From an uncultured virus (IMG/VR IMGVR_UViG_3300020599_000006) (Duplodnaviria > Heunggongvirae > Uroviricota > Caudoviricetes): a DNA stretch of 20,000 nucleotides. Positions 2,832 to 18,759 of this stretch are shown piece by piece (positions within the stretch are counted from its first letter, which is position 1; each line of letters opens with the position of its first letter). The notes beneath the pieces are model-generated. The model did not search any database. It saw only the letters and a list, made by a program, of their open reading frames with translations, and was not told the DNA's origin. The position numbers and the translations under genes were made by a program. Where the stretch lies: the IMG/VR virus record IMGVR_UViG_3300020599_000006; one strand, written 5' to 3'.

Positions 2832-2859
2832 GGGTGAATAAAGATGATGAACACAGAGA

Positions 2860-2900
2860 CGGCATAAAGGCCCAGGGTTATCCCCTGGGCCTTTATGCCG
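2860..2900. terminator. bidirectional terminator-like 18-bp inverted repeat with TATGCCG on both strands
   Basis: CGGCATAAAGGCCCAGGG-TTATC-CCCTGGGCCTTTATGCCG at the convergence of the + and - gene blocks. Confidence 0.8.
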
Positions 2901-2901
2901 C

Positions 2902-3360
2902 TTAGGCAACGAGTTGCAACTGGATATCTTCAACAACCGCCATTGGTGTCCAGTCAACCTTCTTCTCGGAGAAGTGGGCATTACCGCCGACTCGCACACC
3001 CGCGTAGAACATCCAAGCACGCCAGCGGGCTACGCCCTCTGCCCTGAGCGCTCGGTAGAGGACTTGATCAGCCTCCTTACGAGTGGGGTAGTAGATGCTA
3101 CCGTCGGCCTTACGGATGCCGTAACCCGAGTAAAGCCAATCGTGGATGGTTGCCGACTTGTCGCCGTAATCGGCCAGCAGGGCGTAGAAGATGAACAGCA
3201 GGATGTTGCGCAGGCTATCGAGACTGGCGTAGTTGGTGATGAAGGTGGCTTGTGCCTCAATCAGACCGTGAACGCTGTCCAGATAGCCCAGGGTTTTGTT
3301 CAGCTGGAATGTCCGACGATCAACCTCGGTCGTGCTCAGCTGTGTGAACGATTTAGACAT
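2902..3360 (-). CDS. DUF1353-family protein
   Basis: Motifs FITNYAS, ATIHDWLY, RKEADQVL...GVARWRAWMFYAGVRVGG are typical of DUF1353, often found next to tail-fibre genes; GGAG RBS. Confidence 0.75.
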   Translation of the reverse strand: MSKSFTQLSTTEVDRRTFQLNKTLGYLDSVHGLIEAQATFITNYASLDSLRNILLFIFYALLADYGDKSATIHDWLYSGYGIRKADGSIYYPTRKEADQVLYRALRAEGVARWRAWMFYAGVRVGGNAHFSEKKVDWTPMAVVEDIQLQLVA

Positions 3361-4549: not shown

Positions 4550-6106
4550 TTAACTGTACTGAATCCAGATATCCCCATCCGCACCACCCGATGGTGCAGC
4601 CGTACTGATCGTGACGTTACGCGTGGCCATAGAGCCAATGCCCAGACCAGAACGAGCCGTGGCCTGATCAGTACCCCCAGTACCGCCCCGCGCTACCGGG
4701 ATCGAACCACTGGTGATCTTACCGGCATCCAGATTAGGGATATCACTTGCTGCCAGACCAGCTCCGGCGGTAACGATACCCTTGGCGTTGACTGTGACTT
4801 TTCCATAGGTACCTGCGGTTACACCGCTATTGACCAGAGTCAGGGCAGCTGACGCATTGGCAGAACCGTCAAAGCTCATACTGCCGGTGGCGTCGCCGGT
4901 GAGGCTCAGGGTTCGTGCCGTGGCCAATTTTACCGCTGCAACAGCCGTGGCGCCACTGGCCAACTTACCCGCTAATGCGGTGTCCAACCCATTGACTTGA
5001 CTGGTTTCGATGTTCGGAATATCGGCCGGTGCCAAAGCAGCCCCACCTGTGACCAAACCCTTAGCGTTTACAGTGACCTTCCCGTACGTACCCGCTGTGA
5101 CACCGGAGGCTGCTAAGGTTAATACACCAGAGGCGTTTGCAGTGCCATCGAAGCTCATACTCGCAGTGCCATCACCAGTAAGGTTCAGGGTGCGAGAGGT
5201 GGCCAGCTTGGTAGCGGCTGCTGCCGTCGCAGTGGCATCGAGTTTACTCGATTGCAGCGCCGTGATCTGAGCTTGTAGTTTACCCAAAGCAGCCAGCAGA
5301 GTGTCTGTCGCAACCACAGCCGTCGAAACCGCGAAACTGATTCCCGTCAGTACACTCCCACGAACTGTAGTGGCAAAGTCAACCCAGCTCTTTACGCCAG
5401 ACCAGAATTGAGCGGAGGTCCCGGCGGCGATGGCAGGTTCTTTGGTACTATCCGCAATCGTGATGTTTGCAGTACCGTTGAATGATACACCGTTGATCGT
5501 ACGGGCAGTAGCCAGTTTAGTGGCTGTGTCCGCATTACCGGCAGTCGCTGCTTTGCCAGCGAGTGCTTGAGCGATAACTTGTGCTAGCGTAAAACCTTGG
5601 AACAGTGAGGTATCAGCGGCGATACCCGTTTTGTCCAGTTTGTTGTCGAGCGATGACAGTAACGCAGCGATGGTGTCATCGTCCTCTGCCAACTTGTCGG
5701 CGATTTCCTTCAGCGTATCGAGCGCCGTAGGTGCACCGTTGACCAGCGCGGTGACAGCCTCATTGACCATTTGCTTGGTACGCACGACAGTCATGTATTT
5801 GTCGCTGGCGGTGCCGGTGGTTACATCCTGGGTGCTGGCGATGTCGTAGTTCTGCACATTGCTCAGCCCAACGGTAGTCTTGGTGACCATCGCCACGATG
5901 TCGTTAACCGTTTTGTCTTGCAGCAGCAGTGCATTGTCCGCAGTGCCAGCTTCACTGGCTTTACCTGCCAGTGCTTGAGTAATCACTTCGTCGAGGGTCT
6001 TACCCTCCAGTTTTAACGCATTGGGGTTGACGACGACTTCGGAGACGGCCTGCCCCAGGTTGCCGATTGCCGCTAGCAGTCTTTCCAAGGAAGTGGGTTC
6101 GGGCAT
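4550..6106 (-). CDS. tail fibre protein (518 aa)
   Basis: Fibre motifs LVNGAPTALDTLKEIA, KLATARTINGVSFNGTANIT, two SGVTAGTYGKVTVNAKG units 93 aa apart, and C-terminal TISTAAPSGGADGDIWIQYS. Confidence 0.9.
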   Translation of the reverse strand: MPEPTSLERLLAAIGNLGQAVSEVVVNPNALKLEGKTLDEVITQALAGKASEAGTADNALLLQDKTVNDIVAMVTKTTVGLSNVQNYDIASTQDVTTGTASDKYMTVVRTKQMVNEAVTALVNGAPTALDTLKEIADKLAEDDDTIAALLSSLDNKLDKTGIAADTSLFQGFTLAQVIAQALAGKAATAGNADTATKLATARTINGVSFNGTANITIADSTKEPAIAAGTSAQFWSGVKSWVDFATTVRGSVLTGISFAVSTAVVATDTLLAALGKLQAQITALQSSKLDATATAAAATKLATSRTLNLTGDGTASMSFDGTANASGVLTLAASGVTAGTYGKVTVNAKGLVTGGAALAPADIPNIETSQVNGLDTALAGKLASGATAVAAVKLATARTLSLTGDATGSMSFDGSANASAALTLVNSGVTAGTYGKVTVNAKGIVTAGAGLAASDIPNLDAGKITSGSIPVARGGTGGTDQATARSGLGIGSMATRNVTISTAAPSGGADGDIWIQYS

Positions 6107-6195: not shown

Positions 6196-6861
6196 CTATT
6201 CGAGCGTGAAACTGACATCAGTAGTAGCACCGTTAGCAGGCAGACCTGTGTCGTCACCTGAGATGAGCCATGCAGTTACATCGGGGTCACCCAGGTACCC
6301 TATTGCTTGACTGGTTGCCAGTGTGACACCGTTAATGGTAATCGAGGGTACATTGTACTGCTCCTGATTACCCGCCAGCAGCAAATAGAGACTGGCTATG
6401 CCACCGCTCACCGACCATGTGATGACGACCACTTCGATGCCATTGACAGTGTTGGGGGTGAGGCTACCAAAAGGTGCACCACTGACGAAGGAAGATCCAG
6501 CTGCCGCAGCATAGCCGATCATGCCGTCGCCTGGCTGAGCACCTATCACCATGCTACCACTGTAGGCATTGTTGACAGGCGGATCTCCGCCGTCATTCGT
6601 AAGGGTGTCCACCATGTCCTGAATAGCGGCGGTCAGCTGATCCAGGACATCCCCTACTCCAGCAGGGGTGATGAACTTATCAGTGATAGCACCTTCCGTG
6701 GACTCTTCACTGGAGGCGGTCAGATCGACCTGGGTTTTACCTGCCAGTTTGGCAGTGTCCACCGCTTGTTCTGTTTTCCCCAGCTTATCAGCCAGCTTCC
6801 CTGCCACCGCTTGACCGAACTGCTGGAACTTCGATGCCAGTTCAGGCAGATTTATCGTCAT
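6196..6861 (-). CDS. short tail-fibre-associated protein (fibre repeat plus C-terminal beta domain)
   Basis: KLGKTEQAVDTAKLAGKTQVDLTAS...KFITPAG is shared with the 6918 and 7615 genes; a GGAG RBS favours the start at 6861 (MTINL). Confidence 0.75.
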   Translation of the reverse strand: MTINLPELASKFQQFGQAVAGKLADKLGKTEQAVDTAKLAGKTQVDLTASSEESTEGAITDKFITPAGVGDVLDQLTAAIQDMVDTLTNDGGDPPVNNAYSGSMVIGAQPGDGMIGYAAAAGSSFVSGAPFGSLTPNTVNGIEVVVITWSVSGGIASLYLLLAGNQEQYNVPSITINGVTLATSQAIGYLGDPDVTAWLISGDDTGLPANGATTDVSFTLE

Positions 6862-6879
6862 GTTTAGCTCCATGATAGC

Positions 6880-6917
6880 AAGAAAGGGGAGGGCTTAGCC
6901 CTCCCCGCTCTATGCCG
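6880..6917. terminator. hairpin with flanking TATGCCG
   Basis: GGGGAGGGC-TTA-GCCCTCCCC (6886-6906); the - strand has TTTCTT after the stem, the + strand has TATGCCG at 6911-6917. Confidence 0.7.
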
Positions 6918-7559
6918 TTAGGACAGCGACCCGGTGTACTTGAGTTCTACTGCCACGTTGCCGCTGGTGGGTACGGAACTGAGGTCGCTGAAGGTGAACA
7001 CGATCTTGGTGTCCGTGCCGTCCAGGGTGGCAGTGACCGATGTGCTCAGTTGACCGCCCAGTTTCAGCGATAGCCATTCGACCGCGGTCAGATCTGTTTC
7101 GTAGAACCAGATCTCGGCCGTGTTACCCAGCGACCAGGTCAGTTCGTCGACCGTGTGACTTCCCACTGCCCCAGGCGTCAGGGTACCACGGTCGTCCTTT
7201 TCGTAACCATAGGTGGCAAACCCGCCCTGCTCGCCGAAGCTCCCCGGAACCAGGGTGCCGGTCCAGGTGGTGCCACCGTCACCGCTACCAGTGATAGCAG
7301 CGATGGCATCTTCGAACGCTGTGGTCAGTTGGTCCAGGGTGTCACCCAGTCCTGCTGGTGTCACGAACTTGTCCGTGACGGTACCGGCACCGGTTTCTTC
7401 GTTGCTGGCCGTCAAGTCAGCCTGTGACTTACCGCCGAGCTTGGCAGCATCGGCCGCCTGTTCTTCCTTACCAAGCTTGTCGTTGAGCTTAGTGACGATG
7501 TTCTGACTGAATTCACCGAACTTCGTCGCCATCTCCGACAGTTTTTGCGCAATGGACAT
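6918..7559 (-). CDS. short tail-fibre-associated protein, paralog of 6196-6861
   Basis: KLGKEEQAADAAKLGGKSQADLTAS...KFVTPAGLGDTLDQLT; a GGAG RBS favours the start at 7559 (MSIAQK). Confidence 0.75.
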   Translation of the reverse strand: MSIAQKLSEMATKFGEFSQNIVTKLNDKLGKEEQAADAAKLGGKSQADLTASNEETGAGTVTDKFVTPAGLGDTLDQLTTAFEDAIAAITGSGDGGTTWTGTLVPGSFGEQGGFATYGYEKDDRGTLTPGAVGSHTVDELTWSLGNTAEIWFYETDLTAVEWLSLKLGGQLSTSVTATLDGTDTKIVFTFSDLSSVPTSGNVAVELKYTGSLS

Positions 7560-7581
7560 GACTTTCTCCATTTAAAACTGA

Positions 7582-7614: not shown

Positions 7615-9744
7615 TTAGACGGGATCGTTGTTCAGTGCATCGATCGCATCGTTCAGCGCTTGGGTCATGGAGTCGACCACCTCTTCCAGCTCAGCGCTGG
7701 TGGCGAGGGTATCGGTCACCGACTTCAGACCCGCCGGGGTGACGAACTTGGCAGTCTCGGTACCGGTCTGAGTTTCGACATCCGATGCCGTCAGATCGGC
7801 CTGAGTCTTACCGCCCAGTTTTGCGGAATCCGCAGCCTGTTCGGTCTTACCCAGTTTCTGGCCCAGCTGGGTCACCAGGGCAGCCAGCGCGTCGTCCTGA
7901 TCGGCCAGTGCATCCGCCAGCTCTTTCAGAGTGTCGTAGGCTTCCGGCGCGCCGTTGACGAGGGCGTTGATCGCATCATCCACCTTGGCCTTCAGAGCCA
8001 GCGCAGTGATGTATTTCTCGTCGTCAGTACCAGCGATTGCCTCAGCCGAGGAAGCCTTCTTGGCAATGAAGCCGTCGATGGCATCACGCAGGGTCTTCAG
8101 GGTTTCGTCGGCATCGCCACCGTCGATAAAGCGATCGACCAGTTCACTGTTCGCCGCAGCGACCGCCGTATTTACGAAGTCCTGGGTCGCCATCGTGCCC
8201 CAGCTGGGGCGCATTGACCCACCGCCGTTCGAGGCGTAGCTGCCGTAATGGTACAGCGTGACGTTGGAGACCCCGTCAGCGGAGGCATTCCCGAGGATCT
8301 GGACCTTGCGAGAGACTTCCACCCCACCTGGCAGTTTCTTCGACGGCACGATCCAAACGGTCATCACGCCGGATTCGTTGCCCGTGAGTCCGGGAATTTC
8401 CGGCCAGACCGCGCTCAGGTCGGGAATTTCACCCGTGTAGACACCCGTGGGAATGGTAGCCCAGTTCCAGGAAATGTCCTGTACAAAGGCCCTGTACGGA
8501 TCTTGGGTAAAGTCCACCAGTGCCGTGCTGGCCGGGATATCGGACAGGATGTCGGCCTTGGCATCAGCGTAGGTCTTACCGTCGAACTTGGCGCTGTCAG
8601 CGGCCTGTTCCTGTTTACCGAGTTTACCGTCCAGGTCAGCACGCAGGCTGCTCAGGGTGTCGGTATTCGGCGTACCGCCGCTACCTGCCAGGGTGAAGAG
8701 GTTGACCCAGGTATCGGGGCTGGTTTCCACCTCGATTAGGGCATCGAGGTTGGTGAGGTCGTAGTTCGGGTAATCACCGCGCACCATGAAGTACGGTGCT
8801 GCTGCACTGAACGCGAAGGTGTAGGTGTTACCCTGGGATACGTTCGACCAGTTGGCACTGGTGGGGCTGGTGGCTGCCGGGTTGGCAGTGAAGCCCACGT
8901 AGTTGTTGTTCGGACCACCCGAGGTGATGCCGTCGATACGGATACGGACGCCCTGACCTTCGGTCAGACCGGTCAGGTTCCACGCCAAACCACGGACGTT
9001 GTTGTAGGTGGCGTTGAGCATCCAGTACAGCGTATCGTCATCAGCGGGCTCGTAGCTGAAGTTCAGGCTGTCCGGGTTCGTGGCGGCGTCGTACAGGTTG
9101 ACCTGATCGAGCGTCGGACGAGCCAGCCCCAGGGCCAGGTTCAGTCCGCCACCGGTACCAGGGCCGCGCAGATCGCTGGTGACGGCGTCGATGATTTCCT
9201 GCTTGGTGCTACCGCCGAGCAGCGCGGAGTCGGCTGCTTGCTCGGTCTTGCCGAGTTTGTTGTCCAGCGCCAGCGTGATGGCGGCGATGGCATCCTGGTC
9301 ATTGGCCAGGGCGTCTGCCAGTTCCTTGAGGGTATCCAGCGCAGTGGGGGCGCCGTCGACCAGATCGGCGATTGCCTTGTCGGTGGCAGCCTTGAGGCTC
9401 AGTGCGGTGATGTACTTGCTGTCGTCGGTACCGGTGGTAGCGTCTTCAGCCGTGGCCTTGTTGGCGATGAAAGCATCCAGCGACCCCTTCAGGCCAGTCA
9501 GCGCTGCTGCCAGGGTCTGGGTGGTGCTGTTCCAGGTGACGTTATACGCACCGAAGTCGTCGGTCTTCTTGGTATAGTCCGACAGATCAGTGCCAGCGGC
9601 CGCTTGATCGATGACTTCTTGCAGGGTTTTACCGGCCAGCTTCAGCGAGTCGGGAGCCTGGCGGGTGTTGATGGCGGTGTTGACCGCAGTCGAGAGCGCT
9701 GCAATGGCTTCGACCAGCGCCTGCAACTTAGTGAGATCAGACAT
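7615..9744 (-). CDS. long tail fibre protein with duplicated shaft modules (709 aa)
   Basis: Two copies of FIA.KA....GTDD.KYITAL.LKA...LV.GAP.A.DTLKELADALA, three KLGK.EQAADSA units, and two intervening non-repetitive domains. Confidence 0.85.
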   Translation of the reverse strand: MSDLTKLQALVEAIAALSTAVNTAINTRQAPDSLKLAGKTLQEVIDQAAAGTDLSDYTKKTDDFGAYNVTWNSTTQTLAAALTGLKGSLDAFIANKATAEDATTGTDDSKYITALSLKAATDKAIADLVDGAPTALDTLKELADALANDQDAIAAITLALDNKLGKTEQAADSALLGGSTKQEIIDAVTSDLRGPGTGGGLNLALGLARPTLDQVNLYDAATNPDSLNFSYEPADDDTLYWMLNATYNNVRGLAWNLTGLTEGQGVRIRIDGITSGGPNNNYVGFTANPAATSPTSANWSNVSQGNTYTFAFSAAAPYFMVRGDYPNYDLTNLDALIEVETSPDTWVNLFTLAGSGGTPNTDTLSSLRADLDGKLGKQEQAADSAKFDGKTYADAKADILSDIPASTALVDFTQDPYRAFVQDISWNWATIPTGVYTGEIPDLSAVWPEIPGLTGNESGVMTVWIVPSKKLPGGVEVSRKVQILGNASADGVSNVTLYHYGSYASNGGGSMRPSWGTMATQDFVNTAVAAANSELVDRFIDGGDADETLKTLRDAIDGFIAKKASSAEAIAGTDDEKYITALALKAKVDDAINALVNGAPEAYDTLKELADALADQDDALAALVTQLGQKLGKTEQAADSAKLGGKTQADLTASDVETQTGTETAKFVTPAGLKSVTDTLATSAELEEVVDSMTQALNDAIDALNNDPV

Positions 9745-9747
9745 GAT

Positions 9748-10221
9748 TTACTCCATGGGTTGAAATGAAGAGGCTTGTTCATTGATGGCGTCGGTCAGGG
9801 TATCCAAGATCTGATCGATGTCAGTGTTCTTGGTATACTCCGAAGCATCCAAGCCACCCAACTTGTTCGAGTCAGCCACAGTCCCATTGCGTGCTTCATC
9901 GATAACTTCTTGCTTGGAACTTCCTTCAAGTCTTCTTGAGTTTACAGCGATGTCGGAGACACCCAGTTTCTGTTGGAGGAACTGGACGATCTCTTCTTTG
10001 GTGTAGGCGCCCACTTGGGCAGCCGTCACCTGGTTGGGGTTGTTCCTTAGCGCACCGTAGACTGCCAGCACATGGTTGATGGTAGTACGGTAGGATTTCT
10101 TTCCGTTACCACCACCATCGGCACGTGTAGCAATCGTGATCTCAATACTTTCATCACCATCAATGGTGTCCATGAGATCTAGCGCATCGATTGTTACACC
10201 ATCTTGCGGGCTAATGGACAT
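9748..10221 (-). CDS. virion / proximal tail fibre protein (157 aa)
   Basis: NPNQVTAAQVGAY fibre motif and NSRRLEG/DSNKLGG repeats; an AGGAG RBS favours the start at 10221 (MSISPQ). Confidence 0.7.
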   Translation of the reverse strand: MSISPQDGVTIDALDLMDTIDGDESIEITIATRADGGGNGKKSYRTTINHVLAVYGALRNNPNQVTAAQVGAYTKEEIVQFLQQKLGVSDIAVNSRRLEGSSKQEVIDEARNGTVADSNKLGGLDASEYTKNTDIDQILDTLTDAINEQASSFQPME

Positions 10222-10259
10222 GGGGTTACTCCTAAAAGCATAACCAATAGAGCTGGCCA

Positions 10260-10269
10260 ATGCATATCA
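10260..10269 (-). promoter_or_regulatory. putative TATG-type late promoter
   Basis: The - strand reads TGATATGCAT ~40 nt before the fibre operon, after a terminator; an identical 10-mer is at 11890-11899 (+). phiKZ late promoters have a TATG core. Confidence 0.4.
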
Positions 10270-10304
10270 TCGACTGTATTTTTTAACAGCAAACCTTATA
10301 TAAG

Positions 10305-10340
10305 CGGCATAAAAGGATAGGGCAGTACACCCTATCCTTT
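10305..10340 (-). terminator. hairpin followed by TATGCCG
   Basis: AAAGGATAGGG-CAGTACA-CCCTATCCTTT (10312-10340); the - strand reads stem then TATGCCG, just after the stop at 10354. Confidence 0.75.
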
Positions 10341-10353
10341 AGGAAACAAAGGG

Positions 10354-10875
10354 TTACTGGACCATAACGGTGGCACCACCGGGAAGGTACAGACCATCCA
10401 AGAGGGTAACAGGGATTACTTCAGAGAGGTCGATGTCAATGTCTTTGAAGACGACTTCCAGCTCTCCCACGAATGCGATCGACCCAGGAGCGAACTTGAG
10501 ACGGTAAGTATGGGGAAACTCCGTGACAGGCTCGATGTCCTCAACGATGATATCACTTTCCACTAAGGACAGTGCATAGCGAGTGTTCAGCCGCGCCATC
10601 ACCTCCAATGAATTGACGATATCCGTCCCTGGGATGTCAATCTCGGTGATCCCAGCGGCCAAGAAGGCAGGGAGTAGTTCAATACGGGTGTAGAAGACGG
10701 TGGTGCTCCCGTAGTAAGGGCTGTCTTCAGCAGCGGTCAGCTCCAGCTGAGTGTTAGCATCCTGTCTGTCCGCTACGGTAGGAGTGCCGAAAAGTAGTTC
10801 CTCCATCTTGAACTGGATCACGTTCACGCGATTGATTGCGTCGAGGAGTAACTCGGCTGCACTTTTCGCAGACAT
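10354..10875 (-). CDS. jumbo-phage virion structural protein
   Basis: The pattern LLLDAINRVN...FGTP...NT.....A...Y.G...V.Y.R..L...LN.RY.L.L...D...SIAFVG...LSEVI....LDGL resembles paralogous virion proteins of phiKZ-like phages. Start uncertain (10875-10890). Confidence 0.6.
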   Translation of the reverse strand: MSAKSAAELLLDAINRVNVIQFKMEELLFGTPTVADRQDANTQLELTAAEDSPYYGSTTVFYTRIELLPAFLAAGITEIDIPGTDIVNSLEVMARLNTRYALSLVESDIIVEDIEPVTEFPHTYRLKFAPGSIAFVGELEVVFKDIDIDLSEVIPVTLLDGLYLPGGATVMVQ

Positions 10876-10969
10876 CACATTCATCTCCATAACTGTGTGG
10901 GGGCATATGATCGCCCCACGTTAAAAAGTAAAGGAAAATGAGACCCTATGACTAGGGCAGGGACTCTAC

Positions 10970-11272
10970 ATGAAAATCATCAAGGCTGACACCATCGAAA
11001 CGCATCTGTCGCTTAAACCCAACCAAGAAGAACTGACGTTAGGTCAGCGTGAGTTGATTGCACTGACCTTTGGCACCGAGCTGTTGTCGACCATGCTCGC
11101 GCGAGTCCATGAAGCATTTACACCCAAGCGTAAAGGGGTGCAGGTGGAACCCTACTTTTTCTGCAACATGGAGTTCCCACGCAAGAGAGGATTCGGGGAG
11201 GCTTTCGTGAAAGTGCTCGACAACGCTAATGTGCCTAAACGTGTTGGCGAAGATTGGCGTTGTTTCTACTGA
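10970..11272 (+). CDS. hypothetical protein (100 aa)
   Basis: AGGGA RBS; divergent from the structural module. Confidence 0.75.
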   Translation: MKIIKADTIETHLSLKPNQEELTLGQRELIALTFGTELLSTMLARVHEAFTPKRKGVQVEPYFFCNMEFPRKRGFGEAFVKVLDNANVPKRVGEDWRCFY

Positions 11273-11319
11273 CACGTAAAAAATAAACTCAATAGCCTCT
11301 AATATGCGGAGACATTCTC

Positions 11320-11661
11320 GTGAGTCTTATCATCACGAATCCCGAGCAAGAAAAGCAAAATCGCGAGATGGTGATTTTCATTCTTCGCTCGAAGACCATC
11401 GAGCACACCTCCATCTGGCCTGAGTTCCAGAAAAAGATGCTGGCCACTAACCACCCCAAGGCCACACGCCGTAGGGGAGCTGTGGCGCTGGAGGTATACA
11501 ACAGCATCGAGAATCGCACGTACTACGAGGCCAGCGACCTGGCAGAAGTCATGAACAAGTGGTTCGATGACCAGGGGGTTCCACGCCCACCGGAAGCGGC
11601 CATCAACCACATGTTACAACAACACCACGACCGGGCTCGGAAAGCTGGCGTAAAACTCTGA
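11320..11661 (+). CDS. hypothetical protein (113 aa)
   Basis: GTG start preceded by GGAGA; codon usage like neighbouring genes. Confidence 0.8.
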   Translation: MSLIITNPEQEKQNREMVIFILRSKTIEHTSIWPEFQKKMLATNHPKATRRRGAVALEVYNSIENRTYYEASDLAEVMNKWFDDQGVPRPPEAAINHMLQQHHDRARKAGVKL

Positions 11662-11685
11662 CCAAGAAGGTCAGTAAGGGAATAG

Positions 11686-11850
11686 ATGACGAGACTCTTC
11701 TTTGTGTGGCTGTGGGTGATACTGGTTAAACGTCTGCTGCTATGGACCTTCATGGTGACGCTGGTGGATGCGGTACTCCCCGAGAGCAGTCATGCATCGG
11801 CGATCAACTCGGCCGTGATGCCGTACACCGCACTGCGATGGGCAGTGTAG
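11686..11850 (+). CDS. small hydrophobic protein (54 aa; not in the ORF track)
   Basis: AAGGGA then ATG; MTRLFFVWLWVILVKRLLLWTFMVTLVDAVLPESSHASAINSAVMPYTALRWAV*. Confidence 0.45.
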   Translation: MTRLFFVWLWVILVKRLLLWTFMVTLVDAVLPESSHASAINSAVMPYTALRWAV

Positions 11851-11895
11851 GACATGGCAAAAACCGTCCACCACGAGTTTTTGATTGCTTGATAT

Positions 11896-12400
11896 GCATA
11901 GAAGCTCACTTTGGGCTCTGATTGGCCAGCTTATTAGCCAGTCCACATGGGTGATCTCCATCTACCTACAGGGGTGGATTCACTCGGGCAGCGGTAAGCC
12001 AGTTGAACAGATGATTCCCAACACGTCCCGGACACACGGCAAGGGGCCGTGGAGGTCGGGGCGACATCGCCCCTGGATTGAGGCCTTCTTCCCCACACGT
12101 TGGGCGATTCTTATATCACCTCAGTCCAAAAAACTTCGCACTGGCTATAGGCCGGTAATGAGGGATGAGAATCCCCGCCGCTTCCTGGATTCGAGTTTCT
12201 CGAATCCTCGAGGTCGTTGAACAGATGAGTGGCCGTTCGTCAATGTGATGATAGGCAGTGCTTGCCCACTGCTTACCCTTCCGCACCTATCCGTACTGTC
12301 AGGGGATATTTGACCCCTGATCGTCTGATAGGGCCGTGGGGCTTGAACAAACGGCCGTTTATCCACTCCACTAAAAATGTGGGTAGCACCTGAGTGCGCC
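11896..12400 (+). ncRNA. candidate large structured non-coding RNA of unknown class
   Basis: No credible ORF; more than 10 stem-loops and at least 3 long-range helices; G-U pairs favour the + strand; one GAGA tetraloop; exact repeat GTTGAACAGATGA twice. Boundaries approximate. Confidence 0.6.
12002..12228 (+). repeat. exact 13-nt direct repeat GTTGAACAGATGA
   Basis: Copies at 12002-12014 and 12216-12228; partial third copy TTGAACA at 12343-12349. Confidence 0.9.
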
Positions 12401-12418
12401 TAACATCAAGGAATCGTA

Positions 12419-13222
12419 ATGGAAATCGAACTGTACCGTGACGAACACATTCGCGTTTATGCCCTTAAAGAGAAACGCGAATACCTGACCAGTCTGCGTC
12501 AGCACAGCAACCTATGGCTCCCTGAAGAGAGCGACGCAGGTGGCGTGCGTGAGGATGGTCCTGAGGAATACTACGTCAAGCACCGTAACGTCTTCCTCGA
12601 ATACCTTACCCCTGAGAAAGGTCCACTGAAGTACGCACCGGATCGCTACCCGACCCATGTAGCCATCCTGACCATCCAGGGTTACCAGGCCCATTTCGGT
12701 AAGAGTATCGTACTAACTGAGGAGCTGTTTAAGCGCTTCCGGTTGGTGATCGAACATGAAACCAACCTGGTCTTCACCGGATCGAGCCTCAATACCCAGT
12801 TCCATAAATCACCATTTACCATTTATCTGCCAAATGGGATGCTGATGACGACCGGACAGGTCAACTACCGACCATTGGAACTGCTGATGACGGGTGAGAT
12901 CACGGTTGTTCGTAATAGCCGTCGCTACGGCTTTGCTATCACAGCACGCCATGGCGCTGCTTTGTCGCCGTTTGATATCAACGGCGAGAATGGCGAAAGA
13001 ATCAAACATGAAATCCTTTCGCACATCAAGTTGATTTTCCCAGAGTGGGCCGCAAACACTAAGCTTACACTAAGGACCAGTAACCCTTACAGTGCCACTG
13101 GTCAGCGCATAGCGCACACGCTCTGGGCAGATGGCGTGGGACCTGAGAATGCTATCCACGATGTAAATCAGGTAACCGCCCGTGCCATCGCCGATGATCC
13201 GAAGGTCTGGTCGGCTAATTAA
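12419..13222 (+). CDS. hypothetical protein (267 aa)
   Basis: AAGGA RBS, long ORF, ends at a UUCG hairpin. Confidence 0.85.
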   Translation: MEIELYRDEHIRVYALKEKREYLTSLRQHSNLWLPEESDAGGVREDGPEEYYVKHRNVFLEYLTPEKGPLKYAPDRYPTHVAILTIQGYQAHFGKSIVLTEELFKRFRLVIEHETNLVFTGSSLNTQFHKSPFTIYLPNGMLMTTGQVNYRPLELLMTGEITVVRNSRRYGFAITARHGAALSPFDINGENGERIKHEILSHIKLIFPEWAANTKLTLRTSNPYSATGQRIAHTLWADGVGPENAIHDVNQVTARAIADDPKVWSAN

Positions 13223-13225
13223 TGG

Positions 13226-13255
13226 CAGGGGTCTTCGGACCCCTGACTTATGCCG
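13226..13255 (+). terminator. cUUCGg hairpin followed by TATGCCG
   Basis: CAGGGGTC-TTCG-GACCCCTG-ACT-TATGCCG immediately after the stop at 13222. Confidence 0.8.
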
Positions 13256-13267
13256 ATTCCAATAAAG

Positions 13268-13283
13268 TTCAGTGATACATTAC
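13268..13283 (+). promoter_or_regulatory. putative phage early promoter motif
   Basis: TTCAGTGATACATTAC; TACATTAC is one mismatch from the phiKZ early consensus TATATTAC, and the site matches 1907-1919. Confidence 0.55.
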
Positions 13284-13414
13284 CGCACTGATGTCCTAAC
13301 CATTAATTGACAGAGGAAAACTCTCTATGTCGAGCATCAGCGTAAAAACCCCGCATCTGACCCTGACTGAAATCTGCCCGGCACCCCACCTGTTGACAAG
13401 CGGAGTACAAGCTC

Positions 13415-13759
13415 ATGTCTAAACAAAACCCCACCATCACTTTCTCCACCGAACAACGCGACCCCCACCAGGGTTCCGTCGGCATCGCCTCGGACAACGA
13501 CCGTGGTTTGTTGTACTTCTACGCCGACCCGTTCATTGGTGAAGTCCCCGAACATACCGGTGAAGATCGGCGTGCCTTCGAGACCTTCATCCGTGAAGAA
13601 GCAGAGAAGCACTGGAGGATCCTGCACCCCGAAGCTAGCGATGTGCGTAGTCTGCGCATCAACTACGGCTACCGCTGGCGCAACTGCCTGGCCAAGATCG
13701 GCAAGGTAGAGAGTTACATCTTCACTAAGCCGTATGTCGGCAGTGAAGTCTCCGTCTAG
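13415..13759 (+). CDS. hypothetical protein (114 aa)
   Basis: GGAG RBS and typical codon bias. Confidence 0.8.
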   Translation: MSKQNPTITFSTEQRDPHQGSVGIASDNDRGLLYFYADPFIGEVPEHTGEDRRAFETFIREEAEKHWRILHPEASDVRSLRINYGYRWRNCLAKIGKVESYIFTKPYVGSEVSV

Positions 13760-13839
13760 TAAGACCTCACATCAGGGAGCTGAGTTTCGCTTACCTGAAT
13801 AAATCGATAGAAGTCATTGATGTGAATTGGAGTGTTACC

Positions 13840-14412
13840 ATGCAAATCATCAAACTGAAAAGCGGCACCTATGTTCCTGGCCTGGGGCTGGTCTCCATCC
13901 CCGTTGGCATCAGTCGCTCCAATGCGACTAGCAAACGTGGCGGTGGTTGGATACTGAGCTACTCGATGTTCCCGGATGCTCAGTTCCATTGGTTCTCCGA
14001 CTACGCATGGGGTACTGTGGGTGCTGCTCTTCAGGCTTGCATTGCTGAGTTGCAGAAAGAGCAACGTGCTGAAGAGATCACCATTGGTCGCCGCCTGGAG
14101 ACCGCTGAGCGTATCAACAAGCAGCTGAAGCTCGATAGCCCTGGTATCTGCTACATCGAGTACGAACTCAAACCGGGCTATTGGGTGCATCGCTTCGGTG
14201 TTAGCAACCCATTGACCAATCGCCCTCATTCGGTGTACATCGGTAACGATAACACCTACGAGGATAACTGGGACAAGGCGCTGAAGAAAGCCCGTGATCT
14301 GCGCCATGGCTTTGAGCGCGACTACACCGTTCGCAACTACTGGAGCGGTCTGTACAACACGCTGTTGAGCAAGAAGAACACTGCTAAGAAACGGGTCCCT
14401 ACGCCGGCCTAA
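13840..14412 (+). CDS. basic protein, possibly with AP2-like DNA-binding repeats
   Basis: GGAG RBS before ATG 13840; two GI...beta...helix units (FSDYAWGTVGAALQAC; VYIG...DKALKKARDLR). ORF solid, function weak. Confidence 0.6.
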   Translation: MQIIKLKSGTYVPGLGLVSIPVGISRSNATSKRGGGWILSYSMFPDAQFHWFSDYAWGTVGAALQACIAELQKEQRAEEITIGRRLETAERINKQLKLDSPGICYIEYELKPGYWVHRFGVSNPLTNRPHSVYIGNDNTYEDNWDKALKKARDLRHGFERDYTVRNYWSGLYNTLLSKKNTAKKRVPTPA

Positions 14413-14413
14413 G

Positions 14414-14444
14414 CAGCATAAGGGGCAGGGTCTTCGGACCCTGC
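14414..14444. terminator. cUUCGg hairpin preceded by CAGCATA (TATGCTG on the - strand)
   Basis: GCAGGGTC-TTCG-GACCCTGC at 14425-14444 after the stop at 14412; nearly identical to the 13226 hairpin. Confidence 0.65.
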
Positions 14445-14475
14445 TGCCTACCCTTCATTTTTAAACAAAACCGAG

Positions 14476-14709
14476 TTGTCTATGGATAGCTACATCATCC
14501 CGTTTGTACTCATTTCCTGCATCATGACCGTGATCACTGCGGTGGTGGTGTATTGGTCCACTCGTTCGTGGGTGGAGAAGCACGTGTTCTTCCCGCAGTA
14601 TGAAATGCTATTGGCTCACATTACTCGCTGTGGGTTGATCTACCCGGCTGTGTCCGTGTATTGGTACGCCGGGCTTTATTTCATCATGACAAAAGGATAT
14701 TTGGGATGA
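14476..14709 (+). CDS. small membrane protein
   Basis: Two hydrophobic stretches; start at 14476 or 14482; ATGA overlap with the next gene. Confidence 0.65.
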   Translation: MSMDSYIIPFVLISCIMTVITAVVVYWSTRSWVEKHVFFPQYEMLLAHITRCGLIYPAVSVYWYAGLYFIMTKGYLG

Positions 14710-15089
14710 GTAATGCGTATTCCAAGCTGGATTACTCGCGCATGCGCTTTGAGTGGTTTGAAGGAGCCATGGAGACGACGTTGTGCATGGTGCTGGAGGC
14801 TCGTTTCGATCGCCTGGACTCCATTCGTCGAGAAGCCTTCGTCGAACAGCTGAAACACTGCCTGGCTGACCTTAAGTCCAAGCTTGATCTCTTCGACGGG
14901 GCTGTGAAAGACCATGGCTTTCACGACAGCATTTATTACAGGCTGTTCCTCTATCCGGTAATCGTCCGGCGAGCGATGAAGAAGTATCGCGAGGCCATGC
15001 GTCACATCGAAGACTTCATCAGTATCTATAAGCGGTCTGTTTACGAACAGAGCCGTCAGTATCACGAACACGCAATCAGGGAGAAGTAA
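14706..15089 (+). CDS. hypothetical protein (start MSNAYSK)
   Basis: ATG 14706 overlaps the upstream stop; its own stop abuts the dcd start. Confidence 0.75.
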   Translation: MSNAYSKLDYSRMRFEWFEGAMETTLCMVLEARFDRLDSIRREAFVEQLKHCLADLKSKLDLFDGAVKDHGFHDSIYYRLFLYPVIVRRAMKKYREAMRHIEDFISIYKRSVYEQSRQYHEHAIREK

Positions 15090-15866
15090 ATGCCCGGCAT
15101 CATGACCGACCGTCGGATCAAAAAGCTTAGCCAGTATCCGACGCACATGCTCTGCGACGAGTTCTGTTTCCCAGTGCGTCCTATCTGCGCACCCTTCACC
15201 GATGAAGAAGCGTGGGCAGTGGGCAATTGGTCCAGCGAGAACCAGTCCGATCACATCCTCGGTTTACCCTACGCTTATCCGCTGGGCGAAGATTCTCCGC
15301 ACGTGCAGAATTTCAAGCCGATGATCGAGCCGTTCCTGCCGTCCCTTATCCGTAAGGTGGATGATCAGAAGGTGATCTCCTTCGGCGTGAGTTCGATGGG
15401 CTATGATGTACGTCTCTCGTCCAAAGAGCTCAAACTGTTCACCAACGTCTGGGGTGCTGAAATCGATCCGATGGAGATCGATGTCGATAAGTGCTTCGTC
15501 ACGCCGGTGATCCGCACCTGTGAGAAGAAGGGTCTGAAGTACGTCCTCATCCCACCCAACAGTTACCTGCTTGGCCATACGGTCGAGTATTTCCGCATAC
15601 CGCGTAACTGCCTGGTGATCTGCCTGGGTAAGAGCACCTACGCCCGTGCAGCCGTGGCCGTCAACGTCACCCCCATCGAACCTGGATTTGAAGGCAACGT
15701 GGTTCTGGAGATCGCCAACCATTCCAACCTGCCTGCTCGGGTGTACTTGGATTGCGGTGTTTCGCAATTCGTTTTCTTCGAATCGGAAGAAGAGTGCGAA
15801 GTTTCCTACGCCGACCGAGCCGGAAAGTACCAACATCAGACCGGGTTGACTCACGCAAGGGTGTGA
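15090..15866 (+). CDS. dcd: dCTP deaminase
   Basis: Motifs MIEPF, ISFGVSSMGYDVRL, IPPNSYLLGHTVEYFRIPR, CLGKSTYAR, NVTPIEPGFEGNVVLEIAN, SYADRAGKYQHQTG. Confidence 0.95.
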   Translation: MPGIMTDRRIKKLSQYPTHMLCDEFCFPVRPICAPFTDEEAWAVGNWSSENQSDHILGLPYAYPLGEDSPHVQNFKPMIEPFLPSLIRKVDDQKVISFGVSSMGYDVRLSSKELKLFTNVWGAEIDPMEIDVDKCFVTPVIRTCEKKGLKYVLIPPNSYLLGHTVEYFRIPRNCLVICLGKSTYARAAVAVNVTPIEPGFEGNVVLEIANHSNLPARVYLDCGVSQFVFFESEEECEVSYADRAGKYQHQTGLTHARV

Positions 15867-16994: not shown

Positions 16995-17002
16995 CCGCCA
17001 TG

Positions 17003-17037
17003 GGGTGTATGGGAATTCCCATACACCCTCTATGCCC
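17003..17037 (+). terminator. palindromic hairpin followed by TATGCCC
   Basis: GGGTGTATGGG-AATT-CCCATACACCC-TC-TATGCCC after the stop at 16994. Confidence 0.75.
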
Positions 17038-17311: not shown

Positions 17312-17405
17312 TATGGTTTGGAAGCTTCGATTGGCTGTCCTTTTAAATAGAGGGCATCTGTAGTATGGATGCCCGATTAACCAACCTGAAATAGTAGGAA
17401 CCGCA

Positions 17406-17624
17406 ATGGCAATGCGTACCCAGGGTGCTGAAGTAAACGTGTCGTTTGTCCGCAAGGACACTGGCGAGCGTGTGGAATTCGTCCAGACCGTGCAAGCACG
17501 CTGCACCGACCATGCCACCCACGAGGTCGAGCATGAAGTCCGCCACGATTACCCTGGCGCGATGGACCTCGTCGTGAAGTTCAAGCAGTGGCTACCGCTT
17601 ATGCCGGTAGCCACCACCAAGTAA
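17406..17624 (+). CDS. hypothetical protein (72 aa)
   Basis: AGGA RBS and typical codon bias. Confidence 0.75.
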   Translation: MAMRTQGAEVNVSFVRKDTGERVEFVQTVQARCTDHATHEVEHEVRHDYPGAMDLVVKFKQWLPLMPVATTK

Positions 17625-17645
17625 CAACTCAACAGGGGTGTTGAC

Positions 17646-18457: not shown

Positions 18458-18704
18458 GCGCGAACCCCTGTTCCCATTCCGGGAAGCGTTAATCTGCTCT
18501 AAATGTGGGGAAGTGATGACCACCGCAGCTACACCTGAGGTGAGGCGCTGGCCTCGTGAGGAGCCGGTCTATTACACCCACTTCTGTATCAATGGCCACA
18601 GTACCAGCGCGGTCGAGCGATATCCACGCCAGGTGTTCTACACCCAGAACGAGTTGGATGAAATCCAGCGCAACGAAGAAGAGCGTGCACGGCGCGGGGA
18701 GTGA
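18441..18704 (+). CDS. small putative zinc-binding protein
   Basis: CSKC ... HFCINGH ligand pattern; AGGAGG RBS suggests a start at ATG 18447. Confidence 0.65.
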   Translation: MPMPIKREPLFPFREALICSKCGEVMTTAATPEVRRWPREEPVYYTHFCINGHSTSAVERYPRQVFYTQNELDEIQRNEEERARRGE

Positions 18705-18722
18705 TCCCCGCGTTTTATGCCG
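18693..18722 (+). terminator. GNRA-loop hairpin followed by TTTTATGCCG
   Basis: CGCGGGGA-GTGA-TCCCCGCG-TTT-TATGCCG; the TGA stop of the gene lies in the loop. Confidence 0.75.
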
Positions 18723-18759
18723 TCTTCGATATGAAACCCACCACTAAGAGTGTCTTATC

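Follow-up and report, generated by a model that had tools for sequence, protein, structure and literature searches.

phiKZ-type jumbo phages rely on their own polymerases for transcription, and their RNA biology is little known; to our knowledge, small RNAs derived from 5'UTRs are the sole ones mapped in them to date. In the early mRNA of T7, the intercistronic hairpins processed by RNase III are single and about 60 nt long. GOLLD and ROOL are large structured RNAs of phages and prophages, and both families are supported by strong covariation among numerous genomes. The available text of two reports describes structured RNAs that phiKZ and 201phi2-1 make from 5'UTRs (PMC10914365, PMC11512511). 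The 5'UTR or intergenic ncRNA candidates of phiKZ-like phages are described there as shorter than about 250 nt and as delimited by a mapped start and a premature terminator; for some, conservation extends across genera (PMC10914365, PMC11512511).

The element considered here is a gap between genes at 11851-12418 in a 20,000-nt stretch of DNA from an uncultured phage, referred to below as the window. It resembles the phiKZ and 201phi2-1 ncRNAs in that it is noncoding and hairpin-rich and lies upstream of a gene, on that gene's strand, in a phiKZ-like phage with TATG-type promoters. Unlike them, it is 350-568 nt long, has no mapped ends, lacks an internal terminator of the kind this phage normally uses, and has yielded no relatives. 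Its long imperfect helices, exemplified by the predicted hairpin 12276-12341, would lie between the cistrons of a polycistronic phage message and in this recall the RNase III sites of T7, but here they belong to a multi-hairpin region with a predicted four-way junction. Like GOLLD and ROOL, the gap is phage-borne, several hundred nt long, and made up of many helices, whereas it is a singleton with no match in Rfam release 15 at the gathering score.

A Noncoding Gap among Plus-strand Genes

The gap lies on the + strand between a 54-aa ORF (11686-11850) and a 267-aa ORF (12419-13222), and every flanking gene from 10970 to 13222 is on that strand. The gene map bears out the claim of an earlier, first-pass annotation that this is the longest span in the window lacking a credible gene: it measures 568 nt, the runner-up has 334 nt, and no coding signal appears in any of the six frames. 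Codon usage was scored as log-odds after training on 16 clear genes of the window, whose own scores run from +0.11 to +0.67. Fourteen of the 15 smaller accepted ORFs score between 0.006 and 0.43, the exception being a doubtful ORF at 2257-2454 (-0.25), and the 267-aa gene scores +0.286. The eight scored ORFs of at least 54 aa that overlap the gap (seven distinct, one at two starts) range from -0.22 to -0.56. No frame within 11860-12340 has positive codon usage, and the high-low-high pattern of GC by codon position is also absent there. None of the 17 ORFs of at least 20 aa in the gap is protein-like; they resemble random translations, and comparison of the gap ORFs with Pfam and PHROGs found no family. 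The G+C content of 0.52-0.585 is the same as that of the genes. The gap is noncoding.

Predicted Structure of the Gap

The + strand of the gap has a minimum free energy (MFE) of -226.3 kcal/mol (z -5.86) that none of 100 dinucleotide shuffles equals, and the - strand has a z of -4.40. As a genomic control, 138 windows of 568 nt were folded and their MFE was regressed on G+C, with a residual sd of 13.4. The residual of the gap on the + strand, -28.9 kcal/mol, is third of the 138, and the - strand ranks ninth; the two windows that outrank the gap both overlap a double terminator at 2780-2900. This regression replaced a 300-nt sliding z-scan (14-25 shuffles, to 14250) that was too noisy for ranking windows. 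The gap contains five hairpins of at least 6 bp when only Watson-Crick pairs are allowed, compared with a mean of 1.78 elsewhere, and 2 of 130 control windows reach that number. With G-U pairs allowed, it contains 11, compared with a mean of 7.65. One of the 13 hairpin loops of the gap fold is a GNRA tetraloop by visual count, a frequency that was counted against the leader reading favored below. Overall, the gap is predicted to fold better than chance, chiefly in its last ~350 nt: the signal is uneven along the gap and concentrated in 12020-12372.

Three domains can be distinguished. The 5' third (11851-12019) is weakly structured on the + strand (z -1.59), with 12 of 200 shuffles folding as well. 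The central hairpin cluster (12020-12222) has a z of -3.31 on the + strand and -2.22 on the - strand, and its helices have probabilities of 0.87-0.99; on the + strand it comprises hairpins at 12058-12073, 12074-12128, 12140-12156, 12162-12175 (with a GAGA loop), and 12181-12213. The 3' domain (12224-12363, +) is predicted to form a four-way junction with helix probabilities of 0.74-1.00. A 13-bp helix, 12224-12236/12351-12363, closes this junction, and its arms are hairpins 12237-12251 and 12252-12275 and the long imperfect hairpin 12276-12341, which has about 24 pairs interrupted by small internal loops. The segment 12216-12372 folds at -67.2 kcal/mol on the + strand and -65.7 on the - strand (z -5.22 and -5.21), and this equal stability of the - strand was counted against an RNA reading. 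On the + strand the MFE structure of the 3' domain is also the centroid, and the ensemble diversity of 0.061 per nt is below that of 150 of 150 shuffles (mean 0.235). The corresponding value for the - strand is 0.084, a level that 2% of shuffles also reach. In these models the four-way junction within 12216-12372 is very well defined. A last predicted hairpin (12377-12406, +) precedes the ribosome-binding site of the 267-aa gene and is built from helices 12377-12380/12403-12406, 12381-12384/12398-12401, and 12386-12389/12394-12397. In sum, the gap is a credible but unproven structured RNA region.

These results alter the picture drawn in the first-pass annotation, which had listed 13 helices and viewed them as parts of one ~500-nt multi-domain RNA. 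All 13 are present at their listed coordinates; 90 of the 91 pairs are canonical, and the single mismatch had already been declared. Ten are found in the MFE fold, whole or minus one pair, and three are not. The pairing probability is close to 0 for the enclosing helix 11985-11994/12178-12187 and is 0.19 and 0.34 for helices 11903-11917 and 12035-12051, respectively. The comparison with shuffles that had been proposed as a check came out in favor of structure on the + strand, but the description of the gap as nearly tiled by helices was overstated, because 24 of 260 control windows reach its hairpin count when G-U pairs are allowed; any short sequence inspected visually gives a tiled impression. 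Similarly, the argument that G-U pairs valid only on the + strand point to selection on an RNA is weak, given that G-U accounts for 6 of the 91 listed pairs and that the best domain is as stable on one strand as on the other. A single multi-domain RNA of ~500 nt is likewise not supported, as the 5' third shows no significant structure and the long-range enclosing helix is not predicted.

The gap also carries an exact 13-nt direct repeat on the + strand, with copy 1 at 12002-12014 in the 5' third and copy 2 at 12216-12228 at the foot of the 3' domain, 214 nt apart. These are the two exact copies in the window, which has no other copy with fewer than 2 mismatches, and by a rough estimate a chance occurrence is unlikely. 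A tandem duplication around the repeat was considered and rejected, because local alignment of 12002-12215 with 12216-12430 yields the 13-mer alone. Reading the sequence by eye revealed no terminal inverted repeats at the repeat borders, and the gapped two-copy pattern of the 13-mer has 0 matches in IMG/VR. A third TTGAACA lies beyond both copies at 12344-12350. Perfect palindromes of 12 nt (12349-12360) and 8 nt (11893-11900 and 12206-12213) are also present.

Transcription Context

A GC-rich hairpin followed by YTATGCC recurs in the intergenic DNA of the window, where the motif has 12 matches compared with 3.6 expected; eight directly follow an intergenic hairpin and one lies inside a hairpin loop. 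The eight motifs of the hairpin-YTATGCC units are at 1861, 2861 (-), 2893, 6910, 10306 (-), 13248, 17030, and 18715. With 0-4 nt between hairpin and motif, the units span 1840-1867, 2855-2902 (both strands), 6880-6916, 10306-10345 (-), 13226-13254, 17000-17036, and 18690-18721. The available text of one study gives TATG as the consensus of the phiKZ late promoters, which are used by the nvRNAP, with the G as the start site (PMC4666361). Because the phiKZ late promoter is TATG, the YTATGCC units are read as a terminator combined with a late-type promoter. A variant, TATGCT, occurs at 14420 (-), and the unit at 6910 is oriented against its flanking genes.

The first unit downstream of the gap (13226-13254, +), a hairpin (13226-13245) followed by TTATGCC, is likely to mark the end of a transcription unit and the next late-type promoter. 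No hairpin-YTATGCC unit lies between 10970 and 13225, and the gap is therefore probably co-transcribed with its neighbors in one + strand unit. A T-tract terminator is likewise absent from the + strand of 11851-12418, and the gap contains no YTATGCC motif, in agreement with the original observation that no TATGCC terminator separates it from the 267-aa gene. As read by eye, the sole + strand TATG in the gap belongs to TATGCA at 11893-11898, 43 nt past the upstream stop codon; no hairpin precedes it, and a single occurrence within 568 nt is close to the chance expectation. Measured against the 5'UTR ncRNAs of phiKZ-type phages, the position of the gap upstream of the gene at 12419 fits, and the TATG at 11893, at its chance-level count, is the sole candidate for a start. 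No premature terminator that would give an RNA below about 250 nt was found in the gap, and the structured part is ~350 nt.

The 267-aa gene (12419-13222, +) is preceded by a Shine-Dalgarno-like AAGGAA at 12408-12413 (+). Masking of this ribosome-binding site by helix 12011-12018/12410-12417, which has a probability of 0.82, was considered and rejected: among 28 genes folded alike, the start region of the 267-aa gene has an unpaired probability of 0.44, and those of 19 of the 27 other genes are less open. Because this start region is not unusually sequestered, translational masking is not indicated.

Genomic Setting and Searches for Relatives

Protein matches place the window in a phiKZ-like jumbo phage, which supports the jumbo-phage setting assumed at the outset. 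The DUF7941 virion protein encoded at 10354-10890 (-) has ~30% identity to proteins of phiKZ-like jumbo phages of Xanthomonas, Erwinia, and Salmonella. For the dCTP deaminase (15090-15866), the nearest proteins are those of the Pseudomonas phages Noxifer (48.6%) and pPa_SNUABM_DT01, and the latter phage encodes a phiKZ-type non-virion RNA polymerase. The region 9748-15090 and its counterpart in pPa_SNUABM_DT01 share their ends, a homolog of 9748-10260 and the dCTP deaminase, and differ in their contents: ribonucleotide reductase genes in pPa_SNUABM_DT01, and the DUF7941 gene, orphan small genes, and the gap in the window. Judged by this comparison of sequences, 9748-15090 is an accessory island with different cargo, and the place of the gap in a variable island fits either accessory cargo or a relic. 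The 267-aa protein is itself an orphan. Searched against 5.8 billion clusters, it finds itself alone, on one 276,567-bp contig; it matches no Pfam or PHROG family, and in the ESM Atlas its own model has a pLDDT of 0.37 and no usable neighbor. The joint action of the gap RNA with this protein that the first-pass annotation suggested is accordingly not supported.

No known RNA family was recognized. The Rfam scan suggested in the first-pass annotation (release 15, 4227 models) gave 0 matches at the gathering score across the whole window, and relaxing the threshold to E up to 10 on 11600-12500 gave two noise matches, uc_338 (13.5 bits against a threshold of 120) and snoU13 (13.4 against 46). ARAGORN found 0 tRNAs or tmRNAs in the window, and no intron family, including group I, matched even at E up to 10, consistent with the initial impression that hallmarks of tRNA, tmRNA, and known introns are missing. 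Nor do the flanking ORFs look like halves of a split gene: the upstream ORF closes with a stop codon of its own (11848-11850), the downstream one begins at its own ATG behind its own ribosome-binding site, and neither flanking protein belongs to a known family that an intron could split.

Searches for homologs were equally negative. blastn of the gap against 50,697 phage records returned nothing at E 1e-5 or E 5. A covariance model of the 3' domain was built for finding relatives and paralogs; neither the gap DNA nor this model matched the full records of Noxifer and pPa_SNUABM_DT01, and the model did not match the full records of PA7, Xoo-sp14, and pEa_SNUABM_54. In four IMG/VR records reached via the dCTP deaminase, no relative of the gap was found in the whole records; five IMG/VR dCTP deaminase loci have only that gene in common, and the best scores of the model there are noise (at most 14.2 bits). 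No relatives of the 267-aa protein or of the DUF7941 protein were found in IMG/VR. A paralog within the window was rejected, as the model finds itself (193 bits) and otherwise generic hairpins at up to 21 bits. A metagenome scan with the 21-nt hairpin 12187-12207 had a lone match, which was discarded as an unrelated GC-rich contig that shares the hairpin alone.

Near-identical DNA does occur in sequencing runs from soil and wastewater: of the 24 rows listed, 20 carry all or a portion of the stretch, with 11 studies represented. Over 10900-13400, contigs from four runs match the window at 99% identity or more. Two substitutions fall in the gap, 12314 C>T and 12316 C>T in runs X2 and X5, and both are carried by the + strand hairpin 12298-12321, in its 3' arm opposite G. 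Each converts a G-C pair to G-U on the + strand and to an A-C mismatch on the - strand. As a signal of a + strand RNA this pair is a hint only, because about half of transitions at paired sites would be equally harmless and the two changes travel together. The density of substitutions, 2 in 568 nt for the gap and 6 in about 1600 nt for the coding flanks, matches, and there is thus no sign of stronger or weaker constraint on the gap. A 21-nt insertion behind 11961, in the 5' third, is present in runs X2 and X7 and absent from the RNA-library run X6; in the fourth run, contigs break on either side of the insertion site (11961/11962). By eye, the insertion looks capable of forming a 6-bp hairpin of its own at the tip of helix 11957-11978. 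The polymorphism of this indel and the different content of the island fit relaxed constraint. Contigs from the metatranscriptome span 11146-12221, where DNA carry-over is possible and where assembled contigs are no proof of transcription, of its strand, or of transcript ends; contigs of run X6 are missing over 12222-12589, a hole that is no evidence either way.

Interpretation and Alternatives

The explanation that we favor, at a probability of roughly 0.4, is that the gap is a structured leader or intercistronic RNA element that acts in cis on a + strand mRNA. The gap would be the noncoding part of a + strand unit bounded by about 10950 and the terminator hairpin (13226-13245). The RNA of 12020-12372 would form a series of stable hairpins with a 140-nt four-way junction as its final element, 56 nt ahead of the start codon of the 267-aa gene. 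The long imperfect helices may serve as endonucleolytic processing sites and/or as barriers that stabilize the downstream message, and one or more stable RNA fragments may be released, by analogy with the 5'UTR-derived RNAs of phiKZ-like phages. We infer transcription, its strand, and any processing or effect on the downstream gene alike. Counted in favor of this cis-acting leader were the noncoding character of the gap, its above-chance fold, its + strand neighbors, the lack of an internal terminator or promoter unit, the G-U-preserving substitutions, the RNA-library contigs over 11146-12221, and the precedent of phiKZ and 201phi2-1; counted against it were, besides the GNRA count and the unexceptional substitution density, the lack of relatives in the collections searched beyond strains at least 99% identical, the equal - strand stability of the 3' domain, the start region of the 267-aa gene, which is not unusually sequestered, and the signs of relaxed constraint in the island and the indel.

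Alternatively, the gap could be a functionless relic of gene turnover in a variable island, a decayed gene or a remnant of inserted DNA whose hairpins would have no present role. The different island content of pPa_SNUABM_DT01, the polymorphic 21-nt indel, and a substitution density equal to that of the coding flanks fit such a relic, and the 13-nt direct repeat that brackets 214 nt could be the scar of an insertion or of slippage. The neighbors searched are orphans as well: the 267-aa gene finds itself alone, and the flanking small ORFs have no Pfam or PHROG family. A decayed gene should, however, fold like its shuffles, whereas the gap has a z of -5.86 and its 3' domain beats 150 of 150. Its G+C is gene-like, a residual coding signal is absent, neither protein nor DNA similarity emerged in the searches made, and the borders of the repeat lack terminal inverted repeats; we regard a relic as somewhat unlikely. 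The same structural evidence that argues for a leader (the z of -5.86, the rank of third of 138, and the 3' domain) would serve equally for the proposal of the first-pass annotation, a free-standing or excised ncRNA of a new family, ~350-520 nt long and acting in trans through protein binding, as a scaffold, or in catalysis. Such an RNA would agree with the lack of an Rfam family at the gathering score, or of a meaningful one at E up to 10, and the TATG core at 11893-11896 could be its own start if the late-promoter consensus given in the available text for phiKZ applies (PMC4666361). However, TATGCA departs from the YTATGCC form, has no GC-rich hairpin before it, and occurs at chance-level frequency; moreover, no terminator precedes the 267-aa gene, structure in the 5' third falls short of significance, and neither homologs nor paralogs were found in the collections searched. 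A trans-acting RNA is thus unlikely, and its boldest form, in which 12020-12372 (or perhaps 520 nt from 11896) represents an undescribed RNA family that is made or excised during infection and acts in trans, for example by binding a phage or host protein, is more doubtful still.

Good folding on both strands and perfect palindromes such as that at 12349-12360 might instead reflect an element that works at the DNA level, be it a replication origin, a site of single-strand initiation, a packaging site, or a protein-binding site. The gap is not AT-rich, has no iterons, and has no repeats beyond the one 13-mer pair; no GC-skew turn occurs at the gap on the scale of the window, and a replication origin was rejected on these grounds (G+C 0.52-0.585, no iterons, no strand-skew switch). 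Short stems, several of them dependent on G-U pairing, also speak against it, and overall the + strand is favored (z -5.86 versus -4.40; rank 3 versus 9), which leaves a DNA element very improbable. Even less credible is a small protein gene, for which the candidate is the longest ORF in the gap, 11885-12220, with a 111-aa product. The 21-nt strain indel is a multiple of three, and reading of the letters by eye indicates that this frame stays open. Translation of this ORF, the outcome that the first-pass annotation had named as fatal to its RNA, is nevertheless argued against by a codon score of -0.32, without a GC3 pattern, and by the start region, which lacks a ribosome-binding site: no Shine-Dalgarno-like run lies ahead of 11885 or 11894, whereas most other genes have one. 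The product would be rich in W, R, S, and P and matches neither Pfam nor PHROGs. The ORF itself is not in a library of predicted proteins (1.84 billion representatives) that was searched exhaustively with HMMER, and the lone match there (E 3.8e-06) was dismissed as an artefact in which weak similarity, 27% identity per unit, adds up over an eight-fold 69-aa repeat.

A stable RNA of at least 350 nt in an accessory island would extend the RNA repertoire of phiKZ-type phages and would be a candidate for control of mRNA processing or stability, or for protein binding. If a trans-acting RNA is true, it might be one of several lineage-specific large RNAs in accessory islands of nucleus-forming phages. 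For the present, the gap is an orphan element in an orphan phage, and its main value is to mark a target for the time when an isolate, strand-specific RNA data, or relatives are at hand.

Other Features of the Window and Its Relatives

The region 2780-2901 contains two strong hairpins between convergent genes, one of them a palindrome of ~40 nt whose stem includes TTATGCC on both strands. Its neighborhood is the most stable 568 nt of the window, and it probably acts as a bidirectional terminator. Other gaps, 190-330 nt long, or doubtful small ORFs are found at 2176-2467, 13223-13414, 14413-14660, 17312-17645, and 18458-18759, and none of these five is among the best-folding 568-nt windows.

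A 419-nt gap upstream of the dCTP deaminase of Noxifer was considered as an equivalent of the gap studied here and was rejected, because it reads as an ORF, has a z of -0.35, and is followed by unrelated proteins. This segment (9964-10382 of Pseudomonas phage Noxifer, upstream of NOXIFER_236) has an unannotated open frame from an ATG near 9969 and is probably a gene missed in the record. In the window, three tail-fibre-like proteins encoded on the - strand at 4550-6106, 6196-7571, and 7615-9744 have repeated segments in common (families D1-D3), and they share segments of 52-70% identity with a single protein located at the end of the record of pPa_SNUABM_DT01.
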